64,000 nt of DNA from positions 1 through 64,000 of the IMG/VR virus record IMGVR_UViG_3300024348_000017. The stretch is one strand, 5' to 3'. Made by a program: the position numbers and the translations under genes. This document shows positions 14,376 through 56,559 of the stretch, in pieces. Each line of letters opens with the position of its first letter. Position 1 is the first letter of the stretch. The stretch is from a virus. The notes beneath the pieces are model-generated. The model ran no database searches, was not told where the DNA came from, and saw only the letters and a program-made list of their open reading frames with translations.

Positions 14376-14993
14376 TTATGCTAGTAAGGCGTGATATTCC
14401 TTAAAGTGTTTAATTCTATCCGGCAATCCGATAGTACCACCGTTAACACGTTTAGTAATTTGTGTAACAACTGCATCAGTTGCGCCACCATCCGCTAATT
14501 TATGTAAACCGTTTTTACTAAAGAACCAAGCGGCCGATAATAAAGCATACTTCTCAGCAACCCATTGTGGATTAGCTGCGATATCTTCATTAATTGATTT
14601 ACCAAATGCTGTATAGTTGTCTTTACCTGTTAATTGAATATAACCACGACCACAGAATTTAGCGCCTTCACCAGAAGCTTCAGGTCCGTTACCCATTCTA
14701 TTTGCATAAACTAAATTAGCAATTTTTTCTGGTTTGCGTTCATATAATGCTGCTTTAGCAGTATCAGGAGTTTTATCAGCTTTTGTAAAATATTTCTTAA
14801 AAATACCCATTAAACCTTTTGCACTATAATTTAAATTTTCTTTTGTTAAACGGAAACCGCCTGATTCGTGACCACATTGAGCTAAGAAATGAGCTAAACG
14901 TAATGGAGTATTGATTTGGAATTTTTCCATAACTCCTGGAATCTGGGTGATTACCACATCCGGAATATGTCCTTTTAATTTGTCTAAATTCAT
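14376..14993 (-). CDS. glycoside hydrolase family 19 endolysin
   Basis: AHFLAQCGHESGGF, ENLNYS, GRGYIQLTGKDNY, SAAWFF, ITKRVNGG. Confidence 0.92.
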   Translation of the reverse strand: MNLDKLKGHIPDVVITQIPGVMEKFQINTPLRLAHFLAQCGHESGGFRLTKENLNYSAKGLMGIFKKYFTKADKTPDTAKAALYERKPEKIANLVYANRMGNGPEASGEGAKFCGRGYIQLTGKDNYTAFGKSINEDIAANPQWVAEKYALLSAAWFFSKNGLHKLADGGATDAVVTQITKRVNGGTIGLPDRIKHFKEYHALLA

Positions 14994-38397: not shown

Positions 38398-38799
38398 CTA
38401 TTGTTCTGCCACCCACTTACCACTATCAATCAATTTAAATTCATCACTATTTCTATCTATGAATTGATACGTTGCTGATTGTAAATCAAAATGTTCATTG
38501 ATATGATTTAATACTTGCTCAGGTGTAAAATCGGAGCAGCTGTATAAATCGAATTGAAACATTGATGGATGTATTGCATCCCAAACATGTATTGAGGCGT
38601 GGGATGTAGCTAGTGTTACTGTACCTGTTATTCCCTCATTTCCAAGTTCATTAACATATACTGAGGTAGGTCCTGCTACAACTACCATTCCGACTTTATT
38701 TACTAATTCTCTAAACCATTGGTTTAGTATTTCTTCTGACTTTGGTGGGTTAATAATATAACCCTTTACTAGTAGGTGGATGTGATTCGGTACGAACAT
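38398..38799 (-). CDS. speD: S-adenosylmethionine decarboxylase-like pyruvoyl enzyme
   Basis: H.HLL, G.TG...LATSHASIHVW, FDLYSC. Confidence 0.8.
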   Translation of the reverse strand: MFVPNHIHLLVKGYIINPPKSEEILNQWFRELVNKVGMVVVAGPTSVYVNELGNEGITGTVTLATSHASIHVWDAIHPSMFQFDLYSCSDFTPEQVLNHINEHFDLQSATYQFIDRNSDEFKLIDSGKWVAEQ

Positions 38800-39428
38800 T
38801 ACTTAAACTTAAATCCTGTTAATTTTTCAACATCAGTAACACTAACCTTATTATTGGTGATACCGTCTGCTTTAGTTGTATTGTTATCAAATATAAATGC
38901 CATGTATTCTTTTGTCTTCTTAGTATAAACTACTTTCCAACATTGGGTTGGTACTGATGTAGTGCCTATTTTATTTGCTACGCCTATTGACCCAGCCCAA
39001 ACATGCACTGAATCCTCTTTAAGTGCTGTTTCACGAGATAACATTTCCAATGTTTTCCAATCCCCACGATTTAAAGCAGGGTATTGAGCAGTCATATTAC
39101 TGAAATAAAATGATTCGTCGTTTGCTACTTGATCGCATGAAGCGTCAGCGGCTGGAAAATTATGTCCACGATCGAAACCAGCGCCTGTATAGTCTGATTG
39201 TAAATTTGTTTCAGTTGGTAATTTAGGATCAACAATAAATTTATCACCACGTTTTGCCTTAACAGGACACGTTAGTGATGCTTTTGTAATCCACCATTCA
39301 ACTTTAACTGGGTAGTGTTTTGATTTGCTGTAATGCGTTGTGTACGCTTTGTGTGTTAGTATAACTACATCTTGAGCTGTAACTGTAAAACTAACTAATA
39401 GTAATAAGGCTAATAGGCATTGTTTCAT
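38799..39428 (-). CDS. secreted DNA/RNA non-specific endonuclease (NucA/EndA family)
   Basis: Signal peptide; DY.G.GFDRGH..PAAD, ESF..SNM..Q...LNRG.W..LE, VP..CWK. Confidence 0.92.
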   Translation of the reverse strand: MKQCLLALLLLVSFTVTAQDVVILTHKAYTTHYSKSKHYPVKVEWWITKASLTCPVKAKRGDKFIVDPKLPTETNLQSDYTGAGFDRGHNFPAADASCDQVANDESFYFSNMTAQYPALNRGDWKTLEMLSRETALKEDSVHVWAGSIGVANKIGTTSVPTQCWKVVYTKKTKEYMAFIFDNNTTKADGITNNKVSVTDVEKLTGFKFK

Positions 39429-43425: not shown

Positions 43426-43480
43426 AACATGAATTTAAAACAGAAATTTGGCCCTACCAAACAGGTAGAGCCATAATCAC

Positions 43481-43642
43481 TTACTTAGTTACAGTTGTAT
43501 CAACTACTGCTGTAGTTGTATCAGATGTTACTACTGTTGAATCTACTGCTACGGCAGTTGAATCTGTTGTTGATACTTCAGTTGAAGCACCACCACATGC
43601 TACCAATGTAGCGATTGCGAAAATTGCAATTACTTTTCTCAT
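43481..43642 (-). CDS. 53-aa lipoprotein with heptad D(S/T)T repeats
   Basis: Hand translation MRKVIAIFAIATLVA-CGGASTEVSTTDSTAVAVDSTVVTSDTTTAVVDTTVTK; own promoter TTTGG..GGCA..TGTATATTT at about 43669-43699. Confidence 0.75.
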   Translation of the reverse strand: MRKVIAIFAIATLVACGGASTEVSTTDSTAVAVDSTVVTSDTTTAVVDTTVTK

Positions 43643-43700
43643 AGTGTAATTTTTGTTTTATTATAATTAAATATACAACCGAATTTTGCCCAAACCAAAT

Positions 43701-45110
43701 TTATAATTGAAGTCTTGAACCAATCATAAAGAAACTAAGTATGGGTGTACCGGGCACGGTTGATATGCTGGCTTTGTAATCGATGTTAAATCCAAATCTT
43801 TTACTCAATTTAAAACTATATCCTGTGCCTACCAAACCCATTACATTATAGTTCCAAGAGCTTCCCGATTTGCTGTTGTAAGCGTAGGGCGAGGCCATCA
43901 GGAAGACTCCTGGAGATAAGGTTGATTTTAGACTTATTTGGTATGGTTTAGTCCAGAATGCTGTTGTTGACGACATCATTGAATATGAGTAACCATCTAC
44001 TTCTTTTAATTTAATGTTAATAACTGATAAGTTGTAACCATACGTACCTAATTTTGGATGTGGTATAATATGAGTATAACCACCGAAAGTCATATGGGTA
44101 CCTGCAACGTAAGCGACGGTATATGAGTAAGCATCTATTGATTTGAGTGCTCCGTTCTTAAAATTCATATCGCTTTTATTCGCAGATAAAGCGAATGATT
44201 TTAAATCAGCCCATATCATACTCGATACGCCCCAACTCGATTCACCTGTAGCGGATGCTTGAGACATACTCAATGATATGACTGGTGTGAACCCACCTGT
44301 AGCGTTTTGACCTACTGTTAAGTCAGAACCTATCATTATGGGATTCATTACTGCTTTTTTCTTTTCTTCCTTTTTATCTGATTTCTTTTCTTCTTTCTTT
44401 TCCTCTTTTTTCTCTTCTGATTTACTTTCTTCTTTCTTTTCTTCTTTAGTTTCTGATTTACTTTCTTCCTTTGATTCGGTTTTTGATTCGCTCTTACTTT
44501 CGGTTTTGGTTTCGGTTTTGGTTTCGCTGCTTGAACTGCTTCCTCCGCTGCTGCTCTCCGAGCTTGAGCCTGATGATGAGGAAGATCCAGATGAAGATGA
44601 AGATTGGGATGAAGATGATGATGATTGGGAAGATGATGACTGGGATGATGTACCACTCGATGCTGCGGCTCCTGAACCTGCTGAAGACGCTCCTGCTGAA
44701 GCGGCTCCGCTTGCTGCTCCTGAAGCCGCTCCTGAAGCGGCTCCACTTGCTGCACTTGATGCTGCTGATGAAGCTGCGGATGCTGCTGCTGAGGCTGCTG
44801 CTTGTGATACTGCCTGAGTCACCGTCTGTGTTACCACGGGGGTTGATACGGGACATGCTAATGTATTGTAGGATGCATACGTTGCTTGAAGCCAAGCTTG
44901 TAATTCTCCATTTGTTACTTGCGCTGATGTAAATGTTTTGATTTGTCCATAGAAGGAAACGACAGCGTTTCCATTAACCATTGTAGTTGTAGCTACTTTA
45001 GTTTGACCAGTGCATTTGTCAATAAAGGTTTGAGTATAGACTTGTCCGTTCGCTGTTTTAGCGAATAAACATATAACGATTAATATTAAACTTATTAACC
45101 ATTTCTTCAT
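43701..45110 (-). CDS. secreted protein: small N-domain, Ala/Ser/Gly then Ser then Glu/Lys low-complexity stalk, C-terminal outer-membrane beta-barrel
   Basis: Signal peptide; alternating beta-strands; ends FFMIGSRLQL. Confidence 0.7.
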   Translation of the reverse strand: MKKWLISLILIVICLFAKTANGQVYTQTFIDKCTGQTKVATTTMVNGNAVVSFYGQIKTFTSAQVTNGELQAWLQATYASYNTLACPVSTPVVTQTVTQAVSQAAASAAASAASSAASSAASGAASGAASGAASGAASAGASSAGSGAAASSGTSSQSSSSQSSSSSSQSSSSSGSSSSSGSSSESSSGGSSSSSETKTETKTESKSESKTESKEESKSETKEEKKEESKSEEKKEEKKEEKKSDKKEEKKKAVMNPIMIGSDLTVGQNATGGFTPVISLSMSQASATGESSWGVSSMIWADLKSFALSANKSDMNFKNGALKSIDAYSYTVAYVAGTHMTFGGYTHIIPHPKLGTYGYNLSVINIKLKEVDGYSYSMMSSTTAFWTKPYQISLKSTLSPGVFLMASPYAYNSKSGSSWNYNVMGLVGTGYSFKLSKRFGFNIDYKASISTVPGTPILSFFMIGSRLQL

Positions 45111-45934
45111 TACTTATTATTCAATCCAATTGAAATTTGAGAATACTTCCTAATTGGGTCAGTATCTAATTTTAATGTGAACCATTTGAAATCTCTTATT
45201 AATCCGACTTTAAATGTAGTAAATGATGTGTTTGATTTTGGAAATGATATACCACCAATAGCATCTTTACCTTGCCATCTAATAATTTCATTGCCAAATC
45301 CTACCATACCGTGTATTCCAATTTTACCAATTCGTTTACCTCCACCAACATATAAAGTTGATTCTTTTTTCCAATCGTTTTTACTAAGTGGGAAATCAAC
45401 ATTATTGATTTGACCATATGGATAATAGCTATTTTGGTCTATTGCATAAGTCATTACATAATCCATAATGAAATATCCTTTCTTACCACCCACTACTCCC
45501 CAATAAGATATTTGTTTATTATTTGTATGTCCAAATCCAAAGGATGTATAAACTCGTTCTTTTCTAACAGTATCTCTTCTACCACTTTCGTATATGTGAA
45601 TTACACTTCTTTGTCTCCATCCTAAATCATCATACCAAATGTAAGGCATTGGTTGATACCATCCGTAGTTACCCCAATAATAACCAAACTGATTAGGGCC
45701 GTTCCAATTTTGAATACCACCCCTACCACGTGGTGGCAATGGTTGTGATTCTTGTGGTGGATTATTTCTCCAATTACTCACATTATTTTGTGGTAATGTA
45801 GGGGTTTGAACTCTTGACTGTGTTGCTTGAGACGTTTGTGCTGCTGGAGTACTTCCACCAGTTTGTCTCCAAGTTGATACTTGTGAAAAAGATATCATTG
45901 GAATAACCAACAATAAAACTAATAATTTTTTCAT
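45110..45934 (-). CDS. secreted protein: disordered Q/P/G/W-rich N-terminus plus small beta-barrel
   Basis: Signal peptide; alternating aromatic/Gly strands in the C-half. Confidence 0.6.
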   Translation of the reverse strand: MKKLLVLLLVIPMISFSQVSTWRQTGGSTPAAQTSQATQSRVQTPTLPQNNVSNWRNNPPQESQPLPPRGRGGIQNWNGPNQFGYYWGNYGWYQPMPYIWYDDLGWRQRSVIHIYESGRRDTVRKERVYTSFGFGHTNNKQISYWGVVGGKKGYFIMDYVMTYAIDQNSYYPYGQINNVDFPLSKNDWKKESTLYVGGGKRIGKIGIHGMVGFGNEIIRWQGKDAIGGISFPKSNTSFTTFKVGLIRDFKWFTLKLDTDPIRKYSQISIGLNNK

Positions 45935-45937
45935 AGT

Positions 45938-46654
45938 TTAGTTTTTAAATACACCCTTCTTAATCATACGAGGTAATATACGAGCACAAGCAATATCTAA
46001 TGCTTTTTTAGTCGCAATACTAACTGTAGACTGATTAAATTTAACTGGGTCTATTGTTGCGTCTGATAATATTGTTAATTCTCTTGTTGTTTTGGCTTCA
46101 CCTAAACCCGATGCTGCTATAATTTCTCCTGTTTCAGCATCTGTAAAGCGTACTTGCAACCCTAAACGTGTAACCATTGTATTTTTAACTCCGTTTGATA
46201 AGTTTACTTCTTCATCATCTGAAACTGACCAATCGTATACTTCAATTTCAACGAAGTAATGAGCTAATCTAATTTTACCTCTACCATCTAATTTATCTTG
46301 AGAAATCCCAGCGGCTGACGCTTGGAATTGTTTTACCATTCTATTTTTAATTTCTGTTTTATCTTCTGTAAACGTAAAGCGATTAAGATTTTCAAGATAT
46401 TCAAGCGTGATGTTAGCAACGCCAAGGCCCACTTTCTTTTCCTTGAGTTCAGGATACGACTCATAAAGATCATCTCCGATACCACATTTAAGAATTTGTA
46501 TTGGTATCGTTGGTCCTTCATAATTTAAAAATTGACTAATGTCTATTTTGGTTTCGAATGACGCTTTGAACTGTTCTGTCTTCGTGCTTCCTATAGTTTG
46601 AGCACCCACATTTATGGTCAATAACAGACCTAATAATATTAATAAACTTTTCAT
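45938..46654 (-). CDS. CsgG-like (curli secretion channel / TolB-N fold) protein
   Basis: GLGVANI..E.L..LNRF.F.E, LAHYFV...V.D, TRLGLQVRFTDAETGEIIA.SG.G.A, A.KKA. Confidence 0.75.
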   Translation of the reverse strand: MKSLLILLGLLLTINVGAQTIGSTKTEQFKASFETKIDISQFLNYEGPTIPIQILKCGIGDDLYESYPELKEKKVGLGVANITLEYLENLNRFTFTEDKTEIKNRMVKQFQASAAGISQDKLDGRGKIRLAHYFVEIEVYDWSVSDDEEVNLSNGVKNTMVTRLGLQVRFTDAETGEIIAASGLGEAKTTRELTILSDATIDPVKFNQSTVSIATKKALDIACARILPRMIKKGVFKN

Positions 46655-46672
46655 ACATAAATTTAATTTAAA

Positions 46673-46694
46673 AAAGGGAACCGAAGTTCCCTTT
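46673..46694 (-). terminator. intrinsic terminator
   Basis: AAAGGGAAC-TTCG-GTTCCCTTT-TTT. Confidence 0.8.
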
Positions 46695-46701
46695 AGTTTT
46701 T

Positions 46702-46941
46702 TTAATCTTCTTTTTTCTTAGAGCTAAACTTATCGAATGTATCAGCACCCATCCCAATACCAGTAATAATCATTACTGCATTTACTAATTCAGCTGATGG
46801 GGCGAAGTCTGCATGTGAAAATGAATTTAACATCATTGTAATACATAAGAACATTGCACCCACAAACGCTATAACTGGTTTTACTGAAATAGCGCCTCTT
46901 TCATCTTTAAATAAATCAATCACCCATTCTTTGAAATTCAT
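46702..46941 (-). CDS. small 2-TM membrane protein (holin-like)
   Basis: DERG.IS.K, two TM helices, charged C-tail. Confidence 0.55.
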   Translation of the reverse strand: MNFKEWVIDLFKDERGAISVKPVIAFVGAMFLCITMMLNSFSHADFAPSAELVNAVMIITGIGMGADTFDKFSSKKKED

Positions 46942-46962
46942 ACTTTTAATTTTTAATTGTTA

Positions 46963-47571
46963 CTAATGAGAGTCATCGTGGAAGTCTTTTAATAGACCGC
47001 AATTTTGACACTCTAATTCACCATCGTTATCGGCATCACCCCAAACATGTTTACATTGTCTGTGTTCGTGGTGTTCGAATTCTAATTTTTCCATCTCTTG
47101 CTCATGTTCTTGAGCATCTTTAGCTATATCTTGATCATGTTCTTGTTGATCTTTTTTCAACTCAAACTTTTGTTTGTTCTCAGTTACGGCTAAATCTCTT
47201 GCTGCTGCAGCACCTTGAACGAATGCATCTGGGATTAATGGAGTAAATGGTCTGTTACTTTCTTTTATGTCATTAACACTACCTAATGCTACACCATCTT
47301 CCTCATCCATCTTTTGTACTAACATTTTATCCTTATCAGTGTCACTAAACCAATAGTCTATGATTTTACCATAGCTACCAATAAAGGCACCTAATAACAA
47401 TAATAATAATTCTTTCCACTCTCCTTCTATTGATGATTTACTTAATATAGCGAAGAACATTCCTCCTATAATAAATAAAAATCCACCTAATACCATAGCG
47501 GTAATATACCATCTACGGCTCATCATTTTAATTAATAAATCTTTAAATCCTGTTGGAGTTTGATCTGCCAT
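46963..47571 (-). CDS. 2-TM membrane protein with acidic/His-rich tail and C-terminal Cys/His motif
   Basis: LLLLLLGAFIGSYGKIIDYWF; CKH.W...C..CG. Confidence 0.6.
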   Translation of the reverse strand: MADQTPTGFKDLLIKMMSRRWYITAMVLGGFLFIIGGMFFAILSKSSIEGEWKELLLLLLGAFIGSYGKIIDYWFSDTDKDKMLVQKMDEEDGVALGSVNDIKESNRPFTPLIPDAFVQGAAAARDLAVTENKQKFELKKDQQEHDQDIAKDAQEHEQEMEKLEFEHHEHRQCKHVWGDADNDGELECQNCGLLKDFHDDSH

Positions 47572-47640
47572 TTTTATATGCTTTATACGATAATAAACTA
47601 ATTAATATAATAAAGAACACTACTGTTCCTATCTTATATC

Positions 47641-47946
47641 CTACCATTGTGCTGGTTTTTCTTTAAACTCATCACCGTCTTTTTTCTTAACTGGAGCTGC
47701 TGGTTTTGTTTCTGCTGTTTTTTCTTTAATGATTACGGTTTTACCACCTGCTGCTTGAGACTGTTGGTTGCTGTTAGTAATATTAATTACTGGGGCTGCT
47801 TGTTGTACTGGAGCTGCTTCATCACCACCACCTGTTAATTTATTTGTAATAAATCCACCTACACCTAGTGTAACTGTACTTACTAAACCGATGATAATGT
47901 TTTTAAATGATTTACCAGTTGATTCTTGTTCTACTTCTTCTGCCAT
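47641..47946 (-). CDS. single-TM protein with low-complexity periplasmic tail
   Basis: IIIGLVSTVTLGVGGFI; AAPVINITN. Confidence 0.6.
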   Translation of the reverse strand: MAEEVEQESTGKSFKNIIIGLVSTVTLGVGGFITNKLTGGGDEAAPVQQAAPVINITNSNQQSQAAGGKTVIIKEKTAETKPAAPVKKKDGDEFKEKPAQW

Positions 47947-48006
47947 TTTTATTTTTTTTTATATTTTTTTAATTTATTTTAAACTCAATAAAACTACCCA
48001 AACCAA

Positions 48007-48327
48007 TCACCAAATTGGGAGATTGACAAACCAATCACCAAATTTAGTTAAAAAACTACGATTATCAGTTTCATCATTTAAGTTTTGTTTACAAACATCA
48101 CAACCACATTTTTCTCTTACCTGTTTCCAATTAATATCTGCTAAAACCTCATACCATATATGATTTTTATCAGGGTGTTGATGAATGAATTTTATTGCTG
48201 CTGGTGTGAGTGCGTGTGTATCACATGCTGAACCAGGTCCGTCTCCACCAAATCCATAATATCTTACATAATTTTCACCACAATCTGAGCAGTTATATAC
48301 TATATCGTCTCCGTTTTTCTTTGCCAT
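48007..48327 (-). CDS. Cys-rich small protein
   Basis: CSDC, CDTH, CGCDVC. Confidence 0.55.
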   Translation of the reverse strand: MAKKNGDDIVYNCSDCGENYVRYYGFGGDGPGSACDTHALTPAAIKFIHQHPDKNHIWYEVLADINWKQVREKCGCDVCKQNLNDETDNRSFLTKFGDWFVNLPIW

Positions 48328-48338
48328 AATTTTTGCTT

Positions 48339-48719
48339 TTATATTTTGTTAAAATCTGTTATTCCTAATTGATTACCATTAGCATCGAATAATCCTATTC
48401 TATATGCTGATGATGGTAATGCTGATGTATATACTTTTAAGATGTTGTCTCCAACAACTACGTTTACTGTTTCTTTTGATACTACTCTATTTGAAATATC
48501 AAATATTTTGATTGTAACTGATTGAGCTACATTACTTTTAACATTCATAGCAACCTCTGAGGTTACGAATGGTGTTTGTAATTTAATACCTACCGCGCTA
48601 GCTATTTTTAATTCAGCATTAGCTGTAGGTGGTTGGGGTGTAGGTACGTCTACTTTTGTACATCCTGCAAATAGAATAATCGCAACCGCTATTGTACATA
48701 ATTTCTTCATTGTATTCAT
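48339..48719 (-). CDS. lipoprotein with T9SS-CTD-like Ig domain
   Basis: LFAG-C lipobox; VTIKIFD.SNRVV...G.N......SALP..AY.I. Confidence 0.6.
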   Translation of the reverse strand: MNTMKKLCTIAVAIILFAGCTKVDVPTPQPPTANAELKIASAVGIKLQTPFVTSEVAMNVKSNVAQSVTIKIFDISNRVVSKETVNVVVGDNILKVYTSALPSSAYRIGLFDANGNQLGITDFNKI

Positions 48720-48720
48720 T

Positions 48721-49059
48721 TTAATTAATTTTAATGGTCGTTTTACCTATCTGAGTACGGGATTGGTCTTCCAATACTAGATATAAATATTTAACGGGTA
48801 GCGAACTAGTGTATATTTTCAACTTGTTTTGTCCTACTTTACCACTAATGCGCTCTCTTGTTATTACGTTTTGAGTTTGATCCAACATTGTTAAAGTATA
48901 TGTACCTGCCGTCTTTAAATCGAAATAAATATCACCACCATTCACCACGGTTGATTCAGCAACACTGAATATATCTGCTGTAATGGGTTTTGGTTCAGGT
49001 CTAACTTCTACTTTTCTACAGCTAGACAATAATAGCAATATGACTAGTAATTTTTTCAT
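48721..49059 (-). CDS. lipoprotein with T9SS-CTD-like Ig domain (paralogue of 48339)
   Basis: LLSS-C lipobox; GQNKLKIYTSSLP vs GDNILKVYTSALP. Confidence 0.6.
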   Translation of the reverse strand: MKKLLVILLLLSSCRKVEVRPEPKPITADIFSVAESTVVNGGDIYFDLKTAGTYTLTMLDQTQNVITRERISGKVGQNKLKIYTSSLPVKYLYLVLEDQSRTQIGKTTIKIN

Positions 49060-49952
49060 TAAAATTGGAAATTTGTTCCTATCATAAATAGGATTGGGTT
49101 ACTCTTTTTATATCCAACCGATTCACTTAATTTATCCCAAGTTGTGTTATATCTGATATTGGTATTTAATATAAATCTTTTAGTTATTTTCCAATCAATA
49201 GATGTACCATAATATAAGTCTAAATTGAAATCATTTAAGTATCCTATATCTGATGCCGTACCATCTTTAAAATCTTTGTAGATATCACTCATAGCAAATA
49301 CTTGTGGTGATATGTTTACCCTCTTTGTTTTGAATGTATATGTGTACATTGCCATACCTCTATAAGTTATTTGAGATGATGATGGCATTATTGGATAAAT
49401 TAAATCTACAAAATTACCATCTACATCTACTGTATATTTTCCTTCCCACTCACCTTGATATGTTCCCCAAAATGTTTTTGAGGCAATTAAACTATATCCA
49501 AATGTTCCAAACTTTTTAGTTCTAAATACATCTATAAATGATAGTGTAATATCTTTTTGGAAATTAAAATCAGTTGAATAGAATGATTGTAATGTAGTTG
49601 TTCTTGTATCTGTATTTCTACTGAAGCCATATCCCACACCATAATAATTCCATATTGGGTTTATTGATGATGCTAATGAGTGGGCCCATTTACCATTATT
49701 AGATGTTTTACTATATCCTAAATTTAAGGTGGTAGATACTTGCTTTCCAATTATACCTACTGAAAGGTTTGATGATGATAAAACATCTTTTGAAAAATCA
49801 ATATAAGACTCCAATATACCTAAGTTATTCCAATCACTACTTTCTCCAAATAATTCTTTTGGTGTTAGTTGTAATGTATCAGGCTTTTGTATTTGTGCAT
49901 TTGCTACAAATCCAATTAAAACTAACGATATGATTAATAATAATTTTTTCAT
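49059..49952 (-). CDS. outer-membrane beta-barrel protein
   Basis: Signal peptide; alternating strands; C-terminal Phe beta-signal LFMIGTNFQF. Confidence 0.7.
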   Translation of the reverse strand: MKKLLLIISLVLIGFVANAQIQKPDTLQLTPKELFGESSDWNNLGILESYIDFSKDVLSSSNLSVGIIGKQVSTTLNLGYSKTSNNGKWAHSLASSINPIWNYYGVGYGFSRNTDTRTTTLQSFYSTDFNFQKDITLSFIDVFRTKKFGTFGYSLIASKTFWGTYQGEWEGKYTVDVDGNFVDLIYPIMPSSSQITYRGMAMYTYTFKTKRVNISPQVFAMSDIYKDFKDGTASDIGYLNDFNLDLYYGTSIDWKITKRFILNTNIRYNTTWDKLSESVGYKKSNPILFMIGTNFQF

Positions 49953-51868
49953 TATTTTACTTTAACTTTTAATGTTGTACCTGCTTTATTAACGGCATCA
50001 GTTGCACCTATTGAAATTAAACCCAATATATTATCAAGCTTAGTTGTTGATGTGAATGTTATTTTATATTCAGTGGTGTTATCTAAGGTAGTATTACCAT
50101 CACTTATTAATGAACCTAAATTAATATAAGCACCTTTATCAGTTGCATAGTTAGTAGGTGAACCTTTAGTAGTAAATTGTATTCCTTTAAACTTTAAGAC
50201 TGAATTATCATAATTTAATTGGAATTGAGTTCCAACTACATTTTGTTGTAGTGGATCTAATGTAATATAAGCATAAATACTATCACCAATCACTTCAGTC
50301 ATTATTAAAGCATTAATTTCATTACTAATACTCATTCCCCTAACTGACATTGTTGTTAGATTATTTGATTTAGGTGTTGTTGAATGAGATAAGTTTACAT
50401 CACCTTTCCAAGCCATTGTTAAGTTTAATGTATCGGATGATTTACCTGTGTTTATATCAAATGAATACCCACTACCCAATGGTGTTGTAAATGTAGTCCA
50501 ATTAGATTTACCAATACTATCATATTTTGTTTGTGGTATAATTCTTAATGTTTTATTAAGATTAAATGTATCAACTAATGTTTTAGCGCCTGTTAAGTTT
50601 TGCAATAAAGCGAAACAATCAGCCTCATTAAAGTAACCATCACTATTTACATCAGCATTCTTATATTGAATACCATATCCAAATTCGTTTCCACTTTGGT
50701 TTCCAAATATACCACCATTTGCTAATTCCTTAAAAGCTAAATAAACGTCTGATACTGTTACAATACTATTATATAAAGTTGTTAAATTATTTGTAGTAGT
50801 TGTAGTTATTGATTGTGTTTTGTATGTAGATAATTGTGAAAATGTAAATTCTGCTTGTAATCCATAAAATCCATTTCCTGCTCTTATATTTGATGCGAAA
50901 GTAGAACCTGAAAAGTTAAATTGTGTGGGGGTATAAACATAAACTTCTGTCCAACCATTAGCATCGTATGAATTAAATGTTACCGGCCCATCCCATAAAT
51001 CAAATAATTGTAAATTACTGATTGATGATGGTGTAGATAATATACCATTTACTTCTCTACTATCAATACCAATTCTATATCTTTGATTGGTTGCATCGTA
51101 TTGATATATTACACACCACTCTACTCCACCACTAGTTGTTAATGCTTTAACTCCACTTGCTACTTTGGTACTATCTAATAATGTTGTTATATCAACTGAA
51201 CCTGCTGAACTTAATGCTGAACCTATTGCAAATGTTGTTGCTGTTAGGTTGGTATTCAAATTAAAATTTGCTACTGCTTTTTTAGTAGGTGTATTATTAA
51301 TATTTGTTACTTCTTCATTCCAATATGAGTATGTATTTGGTGCACTTGGTCTTGACCATCTCACAAATAAAGCATCACCACCACCATATTCTTGATACCT
51401 TGTAACTATCTTATATCTTGTACCAGCAACCATATTTTTTGAACCATATTGATATCCACTAGCACCATGCCCACCATAGTAAGTTGATATTATTGTTCCG
51501 TCTACTGATATATCGCTCGCATCATCTGAATTGATTCCAAATCTATAGGTTCCTGTTTGTGTTGGTATAAACCAAAATTCAAATTTAATTGCATAGAAAT
51601 CACCTCCCCAATGTGGGGTTTGAATTGAACCATCACACATAATATTAAGAGCAACTTCACCTGTATGTGTTATAGTTGTATTTGAGTTTGCCGTATTTAA
51701 CATATTGTCAAATTCGGCAGCCGTATTTGCGTGGTATGGATATTGGGTTATACTCCCGTTTCCATTATGTGTTTTGTAAGAGGTATAATTAACGTACCCC
51801 CAACCCGATTGAGCTAAAGATACGTTAGTTAATAGGAAAGCTAATAATATCGTAACGAATCTCTTCAT
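49952..51868 (-). CDS. secreted PA14 + dockerin-like + cohesin-like protein
   Basis: PA14: TGTYRFGINSDDA...YQEYGGGD; dockerin-like: VTVSDVYLA...ADVNSDGYFNEADC; cohesin-like: VVGTQFQLNYDNSVLKF. Confidence 0.75.
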   Translation of the reverse strand: MKRFVTILLAFLLTNVSLAQSGWGYVNYTSYKTHNGNGSITQYPYHANTAAEFDNMLNTANSNTTITHTGEVALNIMCDGSIQTPHWGGDFYAIKFEFWFIPTQTGTYRFGINSDDASDISVDGTIISTYYGGHGASGYQYGSKNMVAGTRYKIVTRYQEYGGGDALFVRWSRPSAPNTYSYWNEEVTNINNTPTKKAVANFNLNTNLTATTFAIGSALSSAGSVDITTLLDSTKVASGVKALTTSGGVEWCVIYQYDATNQRYRIGIDSREVNGILSTPSSISNLQLFDLWDGPVTFNSYDANGWTEVYVYTPTQFNFSGSTFASNIRAGNGFYGLQAEFTFSQLSTYKTQSITTTTTNNLTTLYNSIVTVSDVYLAFKELANGGIFGNQSGNEFGYGIQYKNADVNSDGYFNEADCFALLQNLTGAKTLVDTFNLNKTLRIIPQTKYDSIGKSNWTTFTTPLGSGYSFDINTGKSSDTLNLTMAWKGDVNLSHSTTPKSNNLTTMSVRGMSISNEINALIMTEVIGDSIYAYITLDPLQQNVVGTQFQLNYDNSVLKFKGIQFTTKGSPTNYATDKGAYINLGSLISDGNTTLDNTTEYKITFTSTTKLDNILGLISIGATDAVNKAGTTLKVKVK

Positions 51869-53526
51869 TATTCAACTATTAATTCTATCTTTTTACCAGT
51901 AGCATCAACTGCATCTGCTAATACTGTATAGAATAAACCTGCAGTGTTACTTAGAGGTGATTTAGAAGTAAATATTAATTTATATGGAGTACCAACTTTA
52001 ATTCTAGCTGTCTTTAATTGATCAATTGAACCAAATGTTAACCTACCATTATCATGTGTTGAGAAATTTGTAACTGTACTTCCAGCATCAAATATAACAT
52101 CTGTTAATGTTAATTTAGTACTATCGTATTGCATGATTACTTCTAAACCAGCTAAATCAGCTTTAGTTAAGCTTGCTGATAATGTTACTTTATTATTTTC
52201 AACTGTAGATGTTAAGCTTAATGTTGCTTTTTCTAAAGCTTCAGTAGCGTAAGCCATACTGCTAAATGATGCTGTTCTTATAGTTTCACCTGGGTTAATT
52301 GAATTATAATAGTTACCGCTTGATATTCTTGAAGCAATAGTATCAGGATGAGATGAGTGTGACCAATCTAAATCACCACCCCAAGCAAATACAGCGTCTA
52401 CTGTTTGAATTGGAGTTGCAATTGTTACTTTATTTGTTTGTCCACCATCTAACCAAGTTTGATTTAATAAACCACTATAGTATCTTACTGATGTGGATGT
52501 TGATTTAGGAACAGATGCTTTAGAAGTTACATCTATACCCATTACATGAGCAAATAAGTAGTAACCATCACTTTCACCAAATGTGGAATTACTTAATGTT
52601 ATTAAACCAATTCTTTTCTCTAATACAGGCCTAGTAAAATATGTTGAGGTACCAGTAATATCAGTTTGAGTATGTCCTAAAAATGCCTTATAAGCATCTG
52701 ATACTGTTATAATATTATTCATCCAAGTTTTAGTCATTGCAGGTGCAATAAATACACCTAAACTATCTCCAACTTTAATCCCTGATGTGAATATTGCTTC
52801 ACCACTAGCATCTAATGCTTTAGTTTGTATTGGTTGTTGAGTCCAATCAATACCACCACTACCATCAGTTTTTAATTTCATTAATTGAACTGAATGATCA
52901 CCAATATTGTAATTTGAAGGAAATAATACTCTAACTTTAAATTGAGATGTATTACCACTTACACTCGATAGTGATACTTTACCTGTTGTAGTTGTGATTG
53001 GAGCAATATAAGCTGATGTATCATCAATAGCATATGATAAGTCTAATTTATGAATGTCAGTATAATCAGCCAAATCTTTAATTACATATTTTTGTGTTGC
53101 TATAATTCCATCAACACTAGCATCAGTTCTTTGTACTGTTAATTGACCAATATTCCAATCTGAATTTGAAACATAAGACCAAGGTGTAGCTAAATATTGT
53201 GCGTATAAACTTGTTGCAACTATACTATTTGCTGTACTTGCTGTAAATTTATAAGATGACCAATTTGTATAATATGTTTGCACTGCACTACCTTGTGACC
53301 AGGTTGTTGATACATAAGCTAAAGCTTTGTTATTAAATTGATATCTTAACCAATAATAACGTGGTTTAGTTGTACCCTTAGCTACAGTGTACTTAATTTG
53401 AATAGTATCACCCACCTTATAAGGTGCTGCTGTTACTACTGCTTGGTTTACTGTTAATTGTGCGTTGGCTGTTAATGACAGCATAGATACTGCTAGTATC
53501 CCTAAAATTGTTAATAGTTTTTTCAT
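51868..53526 (-). CDS. secreted cohesin-like + degenerate dockerin + cohesin-like protein
   Basis: KVGDTIQIKY...LRYQFNNKALAY; ITVSDAYKAF; GGDLDWSHS; LAGLEVIMQYDSTKLTL; C-terminal DAVDATG shared with 49952. Confidence 0.65.
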   Translation of the reverse strand: MKKLLTILGILAVSMLSLTANAQLTVNQAVVTAAPYKVGDTIQIKYTVAKGTTKPRYYWLRYQFNNKALAYVSTTWSQGSAVQTYYTNWSSYKFTASTANSIVATSLYAQYLATPWSYVSNSDWNIGQLTVQRTDASVDGIIATQKYVIKDLADYTDIHKLDLSYAIDDTSAYIAPITTTTGKVSLSSVSGNTSQFKVRVLFPSNYNIGDHSVQLMKLKTDGSGGIDWTQQPIQTKALDASGEAIFTSGIKVGDSLGVFIAPAMTKTWMNNIITVSDAYKAFLGHTQTDITGTSTYFTRPVLEKRIGLITLSNSTFGESDGYYLFAHVMGIDVTSKASVPKSTSTSVRYYSGLLNQTWLDGGQTNKVTIATPIQTVDAVFAWGGDLDWSHSSHPDTIASRISSGNYYNSINPGETIRTASFSSMAYATEALEKATLSLTSTVENNKVTLSASLTKADLAGLEVIMQYDSTKLTLTDVIFDAGSTVTNFSTHDNGRLTFGSIDQLKTARIKVGTPYKLIFTSKSPLSNTAGLFYTVLADAVDATGKKIELIVE

Positions 53527-54180
53527 TTATTTTTCTCCTAATAGTTTAGTGACTAATTTATCACAACCTTTCTTAATAGCGTTACTAAGACTTGTTTGAT
53601 TGAATTTACCACCCTCATCTACTATAAGAGTCGACATAGAGATTTCAGATGATGATTCTTCAACTAAAACCTCTTTTTCTTTGATACCATCTTTGTATAA
53701 AATACCTTTTAAACGAATTACAACTTCTTGTTCGTTTTTATGAAACACAGATACGTTCTTTTTTGTAGTTAGAACGTCTAGATAAACAATTTCAACACGT
53801 AATTTATTCTCAGCATCTGGGGATAAATCATATCCCTTTTCCTGAATATATTCTTCTAAAATATTTTTAACACCGAATTCTAAATTGCGGTTACCTGCTA
53901 ATTTACCAATAACAACTTTATTAGTAACTTTCTCAACATAAATATGTTCAGATGCATTATACCAAATATTACCTGGGCTATTTTTAAAAGTACCATCGAA
54001 TCTCCATGAAAATTCATTGGCTAAATGTTGCATATATTCTTCTTTTCCAGAGAATTGAAGAACTACGAAGAAAATTTGTGTAATTAATGCAAGACCTATA
54101 AATAATCCTACACCTAATAAGAATAATTGAAATAATCGGTCGCGTAGACTGATGGCCAGACTGATAGCTTTTTGCTTCAT
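53527..54180 (-). CDS. membrane-anchored periplasmic protein, LptE/CsgG-like alpha-beta fold
   Basis: N-terminal TM; GVKNILEEY...GYDL...LRVEIVYLD...LSNAIKK parallels 45938; late motif at 54207-54214. Confidence 0.5.
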   Translation of the reverse strand: MKQKAISLAISLRDRLFQLFLLGVGLFIGLALITQIFFVVLQFSGKEEYMQHLANEFSWRFDGTFKNSPGNIWYNASEHIYVEKVTNKVVIGKLAGNRNLEFGVKNILEEYIQEKGYDLSPDAENKLRVEIVYLDVLTTKKNVSVFHKNEQEVVIRLKGILYKDGIKEKEVLVEESSSEISMSTLIVDEGGKFNQTSLSNAIKKGCDKLVTKLLGEK

Positions 54181-54216
54181 CTTTTAATTTTTAATGTGGT
54201 TCGAATATAAATATGC

Positions 54217-54244
54217 AAAAGAAAGCAACCATTTCTGGTTGCTT
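54217..54244 (-). terminator. intrinsic terminator closing the RNA island
   Basis: AAGCAACCA-GAAA-TGGTTGCTT-TCTTTT. Confidence 0.75.
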
Positions 54245-54297
54245 CGTAAAAGGCCCACTCTGAGCGCCCTGATCGCGGGAAGGGGAATGGACTCTTG

Positions 54298-54668
54298 TGG
54301 AGATGACGAGAGTCGAACTCGTGTCTCAATAATGAACAATAATACCAACGTCTCACACGCTTAGCTCACTGATTAACCCCAGTGCATGAGGTATAGGGCC
54401 ACAAGTTTTTGGTCTTAGTGACATCCACCACCTAGTTTTAATCTAAACTAAGAAAATCTAGCTTGTAACTTCTGTTCCTAGGATGTTACACCCGACGCTA
54501 TTTAAGCCGCTAATGCGTACTCGTTCGCACCTACGAAAGACATCATATCTTCGAAGGTCATAGTAGATAATTCTACAGTTATTGTTTCGCAAGGTTTTAA
54601 GGACTTATCTTACTTTGTCCGCGTGTGGTACTACCTTCAGATTACTGATCAAATACCGGTACATCCCC
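54298..54668 (-). ncRNA. ssrA: tmRNA
   Basis: 5' GGGGATG pairs with 3' CATCTCC-A (G3:U70 alanine identity); T-arm ACGAG-TTCGACT-CTCGT; tag ORF 54576-54502 after AATAACT encodes VELSTMTFEDMMSFVGANEYALAA*. Confidence 0.93.
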
Positions 54669-55091: not shown

Positions 55092-55092
55092 G

Positions 55093-55178
55093 TGCCTCAG
55101 GCGAGAATCGAACTCGCACTCGCGTTGCGGCGAACAGGATTTTAAGTCCTGCGTGTCTACCAATTTCACCACCAAGGC
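55093..55178 (-). tRNA. tRNA-Leu(UAA)
   Basis: CAGGA-CTTAAAA-TCCTG anticodon arm, long variable arm, GTTCGATT T-loop. Confidence 0.92.
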
Positions 55179-55238
55179 ATGAGACCCGATATCCGCGTTT
55201 TCATCTCACTCGGGTCATGATGAGCTTCCGACGGTTTG

Positions 55239-55394
55239 CTGTAGGGGCTGGAATCGAACCAGCACGCTGCAATTCAATATAAGACAATTAAGCCGGCTTT
55301 GTGGTCAACCCATATCTTACATCTATCTCTTATCAGCACCCACGAGACGAGTGGGCACGTCTACCTTGACTGCCGTCATTTCCGCCACCCTACA
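55239..55394 (-). ncRNA. 156-nt tRNA-like RNA (GUC in the anticodon position) with expanded D-loop and ~75-nt variable arm
   Basis: Acceptor TGTAGGG/CCCTACA; T-arm GCTGG-TTCGATT-CCAGC; anticodon arm CCCAC-TCGTCTC-GTGGG. Confidence 0.75.
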
Positions 55395-55397
55395 GTA

Positions 55398-55664
55398 TTA
55401 AACCCATCTATTACCATTTCGGCGTTTAGCTTCTTCAGCTTCTTTAACTCCTTTAACCATTTTAATCCAGGTTAAAGATACGTCAACAGGAGCTAATACC
55501 CAAGCCATAACTAAAACCATTATAGCATCCATTTCTGGGGAGGTTCCGAAATCAATTCCTCTTGTTTTATATTTTTTATTTAACTGATAGAAACAGTAAA
55601 TAATACAAATAATGTAATAACCTAATAACATATAACTATTTTTTAAAGTATTTTTCAAGTGCAT
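55398..55664 (-). CDS. small membrane protein inside the RNA island
   Basis: Two hydrophobic segments; true start probably MLLGYY. Confidence 0.5.
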   Translation of the reverse strand: MHLKNTLKNSYMLLGYYIICIIYCFYQLNKKYKTRGIDFGTSPEMDAIMVLVMAWVLAPVDVSLTWIKMVKGVKEAEEAKRRNGNRWV

Positions 55665-55845
55665 CTATCTTATCATCAGCATCAACTAACATTGTAAGTG
55701 CTTCTTCAGCATTACTATAGAAGTCTTTTGTTGAATGATCACCAATACCAACAGCGTGATTAGATAATAAATCTAAACTTAATAATGCTTTTGATTTTTC
55801 AGCTATTGCTGATGCCATAAGCATGTCAAATAATTCTTTTTTCAT
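55636..55845 (-). CDS. small conserved phage protein
   Basis: AVGIGDHS motif. Confidence 0.65.
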   Translation of the reverse strand: MKKELFDMLMASAIAEKSKALLSLDLLSNHAVGIGDHSTKDFYSNAEEALTMLVDADDKIDALEKYFKK

Positions 55846-55858
55846 ATTTTTTATTTTG

Positions 55859-55943
55859 CGGAAAGACAGGGATTCGAACCCCAGAACCTGTTACAGTTGC
55901 CAGTTTTCAAGACTGGTGCATTCAACCACTCTGCCATCTTTCC
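55859..55943 (-). tRNA. tRNA-Ser(UGA)
   Basis: CCAGT-CTTGAAA-ACTGG, long variable arm, G73. Confidence 0.92.
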
Positions 55944-55948
55944 AAGAG

Positions 55949-56046
55949 GATGAGGTTTAGCGGCCAACTAAACAAAGTTACTACTTGCTCTCACCTCGAG
56001 TTACACGTGACAGTTACGGGTGAATAGGGTTTCGTCAACACTCATC
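55949..56046 (-). ncRNA. putative structured RNA between tRNA-Thr and tRNA-Ser
   Basis: GATGAG/CTCATC closing stem stacked on GTTTAG-TTGGCCG-CTAAAC; TTCACC/GGTGAG stem. Confidence 0.45.
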
Positions 56047-56050
56047 TTTG

Positions 56051-56123
56051 ATCCAGAAATAAGAATCGAACTTACGACCTACTGATTACAAATCAGTTGC
56101 TCTACCTGCTGAGCTATTCTGGA
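56051..56123 (-). tRNA. tRNA-Thr(UGU)
   Basis: ACTGA-TTTGTAA-TCAGT; canonical D and T arms. Confidence 0.9.
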
Positions 56124-56127
56124 GTTT

Positions 56128-56212
56128 AGAGGATAGGCTCCGCGCCTCTACTAGGGGTTTCCTAATAGCGTAGACTTTCATGTTATTACCTTCGCATGCT
56201 CTCCTACCCTCT
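56128..56212 (-). ncRNA. putative structured RNA
   Basis: 10-bp closing stem AGAGGGTAGG/CCTATCCTCT; internal CTATTAGG/CCTAGTAG and CATG/CATG hairpins. Confidence 0.5.
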
Positions 56213-56221
56213 TTATATTTT

Positions 56222-56298
56222 TAGGAAAGTAGAAGATGGGTGCGTGGACATCTACTTTTACGATTGGCATTTCTAACCGATTATATCCGCCCTTCCTA
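56222..56298 (-). ncRNA. putative 77-nt cloverleaf-sized structured RNA
   Basis: TAGGAAG/TTTCCTA closing stem; AGATG/CATCT hairpin. Confidence 0.4.
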
Positions 56299-56335
56299 CA
56301 GTTAAAGGATACGTCCCAATCAACCTAATATCATA

Positions 56336-56404
56336 ACAACTACCTACAATTTTTTAAAGTCGCCTCCTCGTCATGCGATGGTTATACCTGCGGCAGGTAG
56401 TTAT
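56336..56404 (-). ncRNA. putative structured RNA
   Basis: 12-bp closing stem ATAACTACCTGC/GTAGGTAGTTGT; TCGC/GCGA hairpin. Confidence 0.45.
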
Positions 56405-56410
56405 TGTTTG

Positions 56411-56482
56411 TTGCGAGAGAAGGATTCGAACCTCCGACCCCTAGGTTATGAGCCTAGTGAGCTACCCCTGCTCTATCTCGCG
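56411..56482 (-). tRNA. initiator tRNA-fMet(CAU)
   Basis: CTAGG-CTCATAA-CCTAG; C1:A72 mismatch. Confidence 0.88.
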
Positions 56483-56487
56483 GTTTG

Positions 56488-56559
56488 TACTTCCAACGGG
56501 ATTTGAACCCGTATTACTTCCGTGAAAGGGAAGTGACCTAACCCTTAGTCGATAGAAGC
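56488..56559 (-). tRNA. tRNA-Glu(UUC)
   Basis: CTTCC-CTTTCAC-GGAAG; short variable loop. Confidence 0.9.

Follow-up and report, generated by a model that had tools for sequence, protein, structure and literature searches.

Clusters of CsgG/CsgF genes are known from pelagimyophages and from the phage Melnitz, where uptake, 'sibling capture' and control of lysis have been proposed (PMC7029224, PMC9004378). Among phages of Bacteroidota, Cryophage encodes variable type IX secretion system (T9SS) cargo, including a PA14 protein (PMC7468147), and a 'host-interface island' of Flavobacterium jumbophages places secreted proteins and lipoproteins beside a metal-dependent phosphohydrolase (bioRxiv 10.64898/2026.04.22.720137). 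These reports are partial precedents for the gene block analysed here, which occupies positions 43481–54214 of a 64,000-nucleotide window (positions 1–64,000 of the 90.9-kb IMG/VR record IMGVR_UViG_3300024348_000017, whose completeness is estimated at ~53%). An earlier sequence-only reading of this window knew of no described phage system of this kind, which overstated the case; the composition of the block as such is absent from the cited precedents. We tentatively favour, at somewhat below even confidence, the view that the block is a late envelope cassette of Flavobacterium-type myophages that would couple surface display to lysis and mask receptors.

The block is a single co-oriented run of 14 genes on the minus strand, referred to below by their lower coordinates. 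The 13 genes described in the sequence-only reading, 12 of them exported or anchored, all lie on that strand, and a 14th (43481–43642), encoding a small lipoprotein, was added to the run because it is located between the last barrel gene and a hairpin at 43449–43473. Export signals (signal peptide, lipobox or membrane anchor) were found on 13 of the 14 open reading frames (ORFs) of the block versus 11 of the 93 other ORFs of the window; the calls combine a hydrophobicity scan with reading of the N-termini, and the rest of the window was counted by strongly hydrophobic segments. The product of 48007 is the sole one without such a signal, and every conserved block product is exported or membrane-anchored. 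A role as virion parts was set aside on the same export signals, from which it had already been argued that these genes are unlikely to encode capsid or tail components. Close relatives of the CsgG-like protein encoded by 45938 occur on 509 IMG/VR contigs, 80 of which were fetched, and the counts given here and below are over 81 loci. In the direction of transcription the block reads as follows.

53527–54180, minus strand: 217-amino acid (aa) membrane-anchored protein with a YajG/Lipoprotein_16-like C-terminal domain
51868–53526, minus strand: 552-aa secreted protein whose dockerin-like segment is degenerate and whose C-terminus is cohesin-like
49952–51868, minus strand: 638-aa secreted protein with a PA14 lectin domain (E 1.1e-7), one dockerin-like Ca-loop and a cohesin-like C-terminus
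49059–49952, minus strand: 297-aa predicted outer-membrane barrel, a stalk-less paralogue of 43701, in 11 of 81 loci
48721–49059, minus strand: 112-aa lipoprotein, a beta-sandwich resembling DUF3244 and the T9SS sorting domain
48339–48719, minus strand: 126-aa lipoprotein, paralogue of 48721
48007–48327, minus strand: 106-aa Cys-rich protein without export signal, a sporadic insert in 6 of 81 loci
47641–47946, minus strand: 101-aa protein anchored in the membrane at its N-terminus, with a tail rich in Ala/Pro/Gln/Lys; present in 70 of 81 loci (gp016 of phage immuto, see below)
46963–47571, minus strand: 202-aa protein with two transmembrane segments, an invariant juxtamembrane block and a C-terminal Cys/His motif resembling metal-binding sites
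46702–46941, minus strand: 79-aa holin-like protein with two transmembrane segments and a charged Lys/Glu/Asp-rich tail
45938–46654, minus strand: 238-aa secreted, non-lipidated CsgG-fold protein, the most conserved gene of the block
45110–45934, minus strand: 274-aa secreted protein with a Gln/Pro/Trp-rich N-terminal half and a beta-rich C-terminal half, possibly a small barrel (a lead only), in 19 of 81 loci
43701–45110, minus strand: 469-aa predicted stalked barrel with a two-Cys N-domain, a low-complexity stalk of ~170 aa (Ser/Ala- then Lys/Glu-rich) and a 12-strand C-terminal barrel
43481–43642, minus strand: 53-aa Thr/Ser/Val-rich lipoprotein, behind a variant of the promoter-like motif described below

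Across the 80 fetched loci one gene order recurs: YajG-like protein, cohesin protein(s), lipoprotein(s), 47641, 46963, a small transmembrane protein, the CsgG-like protein and the barrel. All five core genes that were tested are present in 49 loci, and the CsgG-like and barrel genes occur together in 75 of 81; 49059, 45110 and 48007 are sporadic. Wherever loci were inspected, as well as in immuto and in the far relative L101, the CsgG-fold and barrel genes are adjacent or parted only by 45110-type or other inserts. The nearest cultured relatives are the 160-kb Flavobacterium myophages vB_FspM_immuto, which share core genes at 42–63% identity and carry a compact version of the block (gp013–gp019). 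The CsgG-like protein of immuto is 54% identical to that of the window, compared with 42–63% for core replication genes. In L101, where the CsgG-like protein is 36% identical, the core of the block follows the genes for UvsX, an exonuclease and a helicase, and hhalign related the N-domain of its barrel protein (94%) and its YajG-like protein (78%) to those of the block.

Bacterial genomes gave a different picture from the phage contigs. Among 185,579 species, each represented by one genome, close copies of 45938 were found only on two short contigs of metagenome-assembled genomes (MAGs). These are L083 (2.7 kb) and L084 (2.6 kb), in Thiobacillus and Flavobacterium MAGs, and they are most likely phage fragments binned with bacterial genomes. 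Distant CsgG-family genes occur in 47 of 401 sampled Bacteroidota genomes, with a best E of 1e-18 versus 1e-69 for phage copies, and in the four genomes inspected they stand alone, without neighbours of the block type. No member of the barrel family turned up in a sample of 301 Bacteroidota genomes, and the strand and G+C content of the block are those of its phage flanks. The block is a phage module and not a captured host operon: the gene order is kept in the 80 loci, immuto and L101, and no counterpart block was seen in the four bacterial genomes inspected, which bears out the co-occurrence in other phages that the sequence-only reading had staked its case on.

Pfam did not recognise 45938 itself as CsgG at E values up to 0.1, and the kinship appears through its homologues, 14 of 31 of which match CsgG (PF03783; best E 1.9e-17) and 7 of 31 LpoB; those matching CsgG are 25–40% identical. 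The family is small: an exhaustive search with 45938 returned only 208 cluster representatives among 1.8 billion proteins. An AlphaFold2 model (predicted local distance difference test score, pLDDT, 85.7) was compared with known structures. Foldseek placed CsgG at the top (E 6e-7), as did VIA-align, with Z 11.3–11.7 over 157–174 residues (best Z 11.7 over 173 aa, root-mean-square deviation 4.1). Below CsgG came Cj1090c, PelC (Z 9.7) and LptE (Z 8.5), with TraT lower still, and the best viral structure match was a phage protein annotated as CsgG. A sequence profile of the 45938 family reached no CsgG chain in the PDB, and the assignment is made by fold comparison and transitive Pfam matches only. 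On the model, 45938 has the CsgG fold; the Foldseek check that had been proposed recovers this.

The fold assigned to 45938 by the sequence-only reading is thereby retained, but a pore does not follow from it. The leader is of the signal-peptidase-I type, with an Ala-Gln site and no Cys, and is followed by a conserved mature N-terminus; a lipobox-like sequence was found in only 6 of 82 close copies, while distant relatives, including that of L101, do have a lipobox. In the model there is one long hairpin (133–172), the tip of which contains four consecutive acidic residues (DDEE) conserved among relatives, and strand 178–193 is followed by a 14-residue loop in place of the second membrane hairpin of CsgG. 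On these three grounds (no lipobox, an acidic hairpin tip, and a second hairpin absent from the model) a CsgG-type pore was set aside as improbable for the window lineage. A Pfam search of the 90.9-kb record for CsgF at E values up to 1 gave no match, and family scans of the block and window recognised no curlin-like gene (CsgA/CsgB), in a record that is ~53% complete.

Three outer-membrane barrels had been proposed in the block (43701, 45110 and 49059), of which the first and last are supported. The model of 43701 begins with an N-domain bearing two conserved Cys, continues with a low-confidence Ala/Ser helix (91–129) and ~130 low-confidence, disordered residues that are Ser- and then Lys/Glu-rich, and ends in twelve long antiparallel strands within 258–468 (pLDDT 77–92). 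Its barrel matched NalP (Z 23.3), EspP (22.3), KdgM (20.9) and FapF (20.4). According to the model the C-terminus of 43701 is a 12-strand outer-membrane barrel of no more specific class, and Pfam gave no Autotransporter match for it. The stalk-less 49059 is homologous to the 43701 family (hhalign 99.9%, E 9e-35). For 45110, hhalign against the barrel family aligned the signal peptide alone, showing that it is unrelated, and its profile matched nothing in the PDB; its nearest neighbours by a protein language model are small outer-membrane barrels (score 0.90), and this lead is all that speaks for a barrel. In one sister locus (L016, 10720–12139) the stalked barrel gene is present as two ORFs of 242 and 189 aa, split at the low-complexity stalk, which could reflect a frameshift, an assembly error in the repeat or a genuine split.

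The two large secreted proteins, 51868 and 49952, are paralogous over their C-terminal 300 aa (E 5e-11). Pfam matches across 33 members of this lectin/cohesin family comprised Cohesin in 18 (best E 6.5e-10), PA14 in 7, Lectin_C in 6 and Dockerin_1 in 3, and the Cohesin match of 49952 itself falls below the cut-off (E 2.4e-4, 21.7 bits versus 24.1). When a profile of the conserved C-terminal part was compared with the PDB, a scaffoldin cohesin (4ums) came first (E 0.0016), followed by dockerins at E 0.011–0.44, below significance. The Pfam Dockerin_1 match of 49952 has an E of 0.04, and those of the three members are at 0.0034 or weaker; a canonical D-x-N-x-D-G loop occurs once in 49952 and in degenerate form once in 51868. 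From the Pfam counts and the PDB profile it therefore appears that the conserved part is a dockerin-like plus cohesin unit, on which the sugar-binding head is swapped between phages. Thus, of the description of these genes as paralogous dockerin/cohesin proteins, the paralogy, the PA14 domain and the cohesin are upheld, but the dockerin has weak matches (E 0.04; profile 0.011–0.44). A T9SS sorting domain was found at the C-terminus of 3 of the 33 family members (E 5.8e-8), and the L101 copy is tagged likewise.

The two small lipoproteins, which had been called paralogous and similar to the T9SS C-terminal domain, are both: 48721 and 48339 are related at E 1e-14, and among 25 relatives DUF3244 was matched in 11 and Por_Secre_tail in 6 (best E 1e-5). 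For 48339 alone, Por_Secre_tail (PF18962, E 0.051) and DUF3244 (E 0.0023) remain below cut-off. In the window lipoproteins the sorting-domain-like fold stands alone behind a lipobox, rather than as the C-terminal tag of a cargo protein.

The first gene of the run, 53527, had been read as a second, anchored CsgG/LptE-like protein. The anchor is present, as a transmembrane segment in place of a lipobox, but kinship with CsgG is not significant and the protein is YajG-like instead. Its PF03923 match lies just under the cut-off (E 3.3e-5, 24.1 bits versus 25), its relatives form 4164 clusters at 90% clustering, and most of those listed carry a precomputed PF03923 match. A second CsgG was rejected when hhalign of the YajG-like against the CsgG-like family returned a probability of 6.7%. 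In six sister loci (L046, L054, L057, L065, L068 and L073) the N-terminal membrane part of 53527 (residues 10–78) is encoded as a separate ORF of 71–77 aa, and in other sister phages the YajG-like domain has its own signal peptide. From these sequences 53527 looks like a fusion of a small membrane gene with a YajG-like gene.

Three small inner-membrane proteins had also been listed, and one of them is probably a holin. Relatives of 46702, collected with a hidden Markov model built from it and four relatives, lie within the block in 64 of 81 loci. They are encoded directly beside a lysin of family GH19 in L066, L075, L045, L026, L028 and L029, and near one in L016, L017, L020 and L074. Because this adjacency to a GH19 lysin in several sister contigs is a classical holin signature, 46702 is read as a probable holin, although its match to holin model TIGR01598 (holin_phiLC3) is far below cut-off (E 0.04, 14.2 bits versus 39.7). 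Pfam gave no match for 46702, and among the block proteins no holin or spanin family model was significant. The other two, 46963 and 47641, are listed above. The lipoproteins 48721 and 48339 precede the anchored 47641, with 48007 inserted between them, an order also found in L013, L018 and L066; judged by eye, the tail of 47641 is short and of low complexity and the lipoproteins are like 90-aa beta-sandwiches. In L016 a relative of the 53-aa lipoprotein directly precedes the GH19 lysin.

Expression of the block was considered from the DNA upstream of it. The motif ATATTTAT, at 54207–54214, had been called late-type. Counted over the whole genome it is not enriched (23 copies versus 21 by chance), but on the coding strand of intergenic DNA there are 11 copies versus 0.93 expected from shuffles (5.4 kb of intergenic DNA), an excess of ~12-fold. 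In the 60 nt upstream of gene starts no 8-mer is commoner (13 genes; tied with two A/T-rich words). The motif is frequently lengthened to CGTATATTTAT, and its copies stand 4–26 nt ahead of gene starts, those of tail and baseplate genes included. The motif is thus real and enriched before genes, tail genes among them, but its genome-wide count does not exceed chance. ATATTTAT/CGTATATTTAT can fairly be taken as a candidate for a late promoter or a leader element in this phage lineage, and because the motif is common to the block and the tail genes, the block is probably expressed late. A terminator-like hairpin divides the block between the holin-like and CsgG-like genes, with no copy of ATATTTAT after it, and for this reason the block may be transcribed as two linked units. 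The features around the block are as follows.

55092–56559: five tRNAs (Leu, Ser, Thr, Met, Glu), upstream of the block, after the transfer-messenger RNA (tmRNA)
54295–54668: tmRNA, upstream of the block (Rfam RF00023, 71.6 bits; ARAGORN tag peptide ANEYALAA)
54222–54245: terminator hairpin of the tmRNA
54207–54214, minus strand: promoter-like motif ATATTTAT, following closely on the tmRNA terminator hairpin and lying 26 nt ahead of the first gene
46673–46694, minus strand: terminator-like hairpin between the holin-like and CsgG-like genes
43449–43473, minus strand: strong terminator-like hairpin, closing the block
38799–39428, minus strand: non-specific nuclease, secreted (signal peptide) and with a motif copy to itself, 4 kb downstream and outside the block
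14376–14993, minus strand: stand-alone 205-aa GH19 lysin (chitinase class I type) in the baseplate/tail cluster, 32 kb from 46702
3657, 8415, 14334, 20489, 39433, 42486, 58858 and 59434: eight of the 11 intergenic ATATTTAT sites

Nearly all genes of the window lie on the minus strand, and products of the record include a gp6-like baseplate wedge, a DNA ligase and a nucleotide-sugar epimerase; the T4-type lysozyme families searched for in the record were not found. A metallophosphoesterase gene lies 1.7 kb downstream of the block. Homologues of the nuclease (Pfam Endonuclease_NS) occur in or beside the block in L013, L018, L045 and L101 and in immuto (gp012). At window positions 3678–6755 there is a 1025-aa protein of tail-fibre size with an SprB repeat and a CHU_C-associated Ig domain; since these are domains of the gliding adhesins of Bacteroidota, they strengthen the assignment of the host to that phylum. 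The source is a large phage from lake water, with Flavobacterium-type bacteria as hosts. When the block was compared with cultured phages by megablast nothing matched, PHROGs gave no match for ten block proteins (46702 not among them), and NCBIfam had no significant match among the block proteins. Some sister loci carry further genes near the module. A 229-kb sister jumbo-phage contig (L052, 7825–15150) encodes a class 3 lipase and an 826-aa protein resembling TonB-dependent receptors (CarboxypepD_reg, Plug and barrel), right after which comes a gene for a 400-aa lipoprotein, like SusD after SusC by position alone. In L013 (2115–4051) and L018 (2116–4073), genes resembling GroES and GroEL in length and N-terminal sequence are found shortly upstream of the module.

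According to the model that we tentatively favour, the infected cell would produce the cassette and incorporate it into its own envelope. The barrels would enter the outer membrane via the beta-barrel assembly machinery, and the CsgG-fold protein, not itself a pore, would be the periplasmic partner, soluble or assembled as a ring, of the stalked barrel, as LptE is of LptD and PelC of PelB. The lectin-cohesin proteins would arrive at the surface, a route via the host T9SS being suggested for some sister phages by the genuine sorting domain of their copies, and would be retained there by contacts of the cohesin/dockerin type. The outcome would be a coat, made by the phage, that attaches to glycans of the host surface just before lysis and while it proceeds, and the most likely benefit would be receptor masking, such that competing phages are excluded and progeny are not lost on infected cells or debris; a secreted nuclease is often encoded beside the cassette. 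That lectin heads are exchanged and T9SS tags occur now and then argues for a surface location, and for diversifying pressure, of part of the set, and because a diversifying surface set suits the binding of host glycans, a late receptor-masking coat is the outcome preferred. Several points weigh against this model. The cohesin proteins of the window have no T9SS sorting domain, and their surface location is predicted; the dockerin signal is weak (Pfam E 0.04; PDB profile 0.011–0.4); and all contacts among block products are putative. The conservation of the CsgG-like protein and the adjacency of holin and lysin genes fit an essential lysis role at least as well, and comparison of identities across loci is biased by the picking of loci for similarity to that same protein. 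A related proposal, possible rather than probable, concerns the conserved core alone (CsgG-fold protein, stalked barrel, YajG-like protein, 47641, 46963 and lipoprotein), which would be an unrecognised trans-envelope machine of Bacteroidota phages, serving either to open the outer membrane instead of spanins or to export and anchor the lectin coat without host secretion systems.

The main rival to a receptor-masking cassette, which we consider rather unlikely, is that the block is the outer-envelope arm of lysis and replaces spanins. Here, 46702, 46963 and 47641 would act in the inner membrane, while the stalked barrel, the CsgG-fold protein and the lipoproteins would bridge or weaken the outer membrane after cleavage of the wall by the GH19 lysin. 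Egress was among the options of the sequence-only reading, and we favour it more than that reading did, as in sister phages the block and the lysis genes are intermingled: a member of the holin-like family is found within the block in 64 of 81 loci and beside the GH19 lysin in six, and in L016 the small lipoprotein gene comes after the barrel and before the lysin. The order lipoprotein, anchored protein, two-transmembrane protein, holin-like protein is conserved, the stalk of ~170 aa, rich in Lys/Glu and Ser, could reach across the periplasm, the CsgG-like gene is conserved at the level of core genes, and a lysis role has been proposed for phage CsgGF (PMC9004378). However, surface lectins, cohesin modules and T9SS-tagged cargo are unneeded for lysis, which rarely requires 10 kb, and the candidate parts fit poorly, the tail of 47641 being, by eye, short and of low complexity rather than a coiled coil, and the lipoproteins being like 90-aa beta-sandwiches and unlike known o-spanins. 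The window lysin is also 32 kb away, and the constancy of the CsgG-like protein is unusual beside lysis proteins, which usually evolve fast.

The remaining explanations are weaker. It is unlikely that the block is no single system but a neighbourhood in which unrelated exported morons have gathered with lysis genes and a nuclease, several small functions being served independently. Its sporadic members (49059 in 11, 48007 in 6 and 45110 in 19 of 81 loci), the extra cargo of L052 (lipase and TonB-dependent-receptor-like gene) and the terminator-like hairpin that divides the block after 46702 would all suit such a neighbourhood, but the core order is kept from close relatives to L101 and immuto, which is hard to explain without a joint function. 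More doubtful still is a role in adhesion and aggregation ('sibling capture') or in the capture of nutrients or polymers, whereby lectin-cohesin polymers would glue neighbouring hosts or particles and the CsgG-fold protein and barrel would export or anchor the fibre. Head-to-tail assembly is conceivable with dockerin-like and cohesin-like modules in both large proteins, lectin heads are present, bacteria export amyloid fibres through CsgG and FapF-type barrels, and the idea was raised for the curli clusters of pelagimyophages (PMC7029224). Yet neither a fibre subunit nor CsgF was found (the latter by Pfam search of the record), the CsgG-like protein is without channel features, no clumping with Melnitz was observed by Buchholz et al (PMC9004378), and late expression would leave little time before lysis. 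That the block is a host operon captured recently, or host DNA joined by mistake to a viral contig, is very improbable and largely refuted. CsgG-family genes do occur in 47 of 401 Bacteroidota genomes, at a distance, and the host phylum is one in which cohesin, PA14 and T9SS domains are usual; against this, close copies are confined to the two short MAG contigs among 185,579 species, the bacterial matches (E 1e-18 versus 1e-69 for phage copies) are stand-alone genes in the four genomes inspected, the barrel family was not detected in the 301 Bacteroidota genomes sampled, strand and G+C content are as in the phage flanks, and the block is present in a cultured lytic phage.

In phages of Bacteroidota, which exit from or re-dress hosts with an outer membrane, spanins are rarely recognisable. 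The cassette is found on hundreds of uncultured freshwater phage contigs, where it is kept like replication genes and stands alongside lysis genes. It reuses building blocks of host type (the CsgG fold, autotransporter-like barrels, cohesin/dockerin modules, lectins and T9SS tags) in a new combination. Since the cultured lytic pair of immuto and Flavobacterium sp. LMO8 has a compact version, its roles are testable, whether receptor masking and superinfection exclusion, opening of the outer membrane or aggregation. If the conserved core is indeed a trans-envelope machine, it would be an envelope apparatus of a class new to phages, for which a cultured model exists (immuto gp013–gp019).

Known systems resemble the block in part. 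The fold of 45938 is that of E. coli CsgG (PDB 4uv3, 6l7a), from which the protein differs in having no Pfam match of its own, no lipobox, no second hairpin in the model, an acidic tip and no CsgA/B/E/F partners. The pairs LptD-LptE and PelB-PelC likewise combine a barrel with a partner of the CsgG/LptE fold, and the 45938 model matches both PelC and LptE; sequence kinship with these pairs is absent, however, a 12-strand barrel is too small for such a plug, and the pairing in the block is proposed from gene order alone. The layout of 43701, with an N-domain, a linker and a 12-strand barrel, is also that of FapF. Its best structural matches are type Va autotransporters (NalP, EspP and EstA; Z 21–23, 229–240 residues, root-mean-square deviation 2.5–3.3), in which an N-terminal passenger is similarly followed by a linker and a C-terminal barrel, but the passenger-like domain of 43701 measures only ~60 aa, ~130 disordered residues precede the barrel, and KdgM and FapF score nearly as high. 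Compared with cohesin-dockerin systems, cellulosomal or not, the modules of the block are phage-encoded, both are in one chain and they are joined to lectin heads, with one canonical Ca-loop in 49952. As in holin-endolysin-spanin cassettes, sister phages encode a two-transmembrane protein with a charged tail next to a GH19 lysin, and a lipoprotein is encoded together with an anchored protein; the block is several times larger than such cassettes, and its lipoproteins and anchored protein are unlike known spanins.

Among phage systems, the Cryophage cargo and the host-interface island are also variable exported proteins of Bacteroidota phages, read as remodelling of the host surface, and a metallophosphoesterase gene lies near the block as well; for neither has a CsgG-fold protein, a barrel or a cohesin module been described, the island being compared by its description only. 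The clusters of pelagimyophages (HTVC008M group) and of the Methylophilales phage Melnitz come closest in setting, since these too are T4-like aquatic myophages, in which a CsgG-fold gene belongs to a small exported-protein cluster located between the replication and the structural genes. BLAST gave no link between the phage group of the window and theirs, and the block differs in having no CsgF by Pfam search and a CsgG-like protein that is non-lipidated and not pore-like. In place of CsgF, the CsgG-fold protein of these Bacteroidota phages is accompanied by predicted 12-strand barrels, lectin/cohesin proteins, sorting-domain-like lipoproteins and a YajG-like protein.

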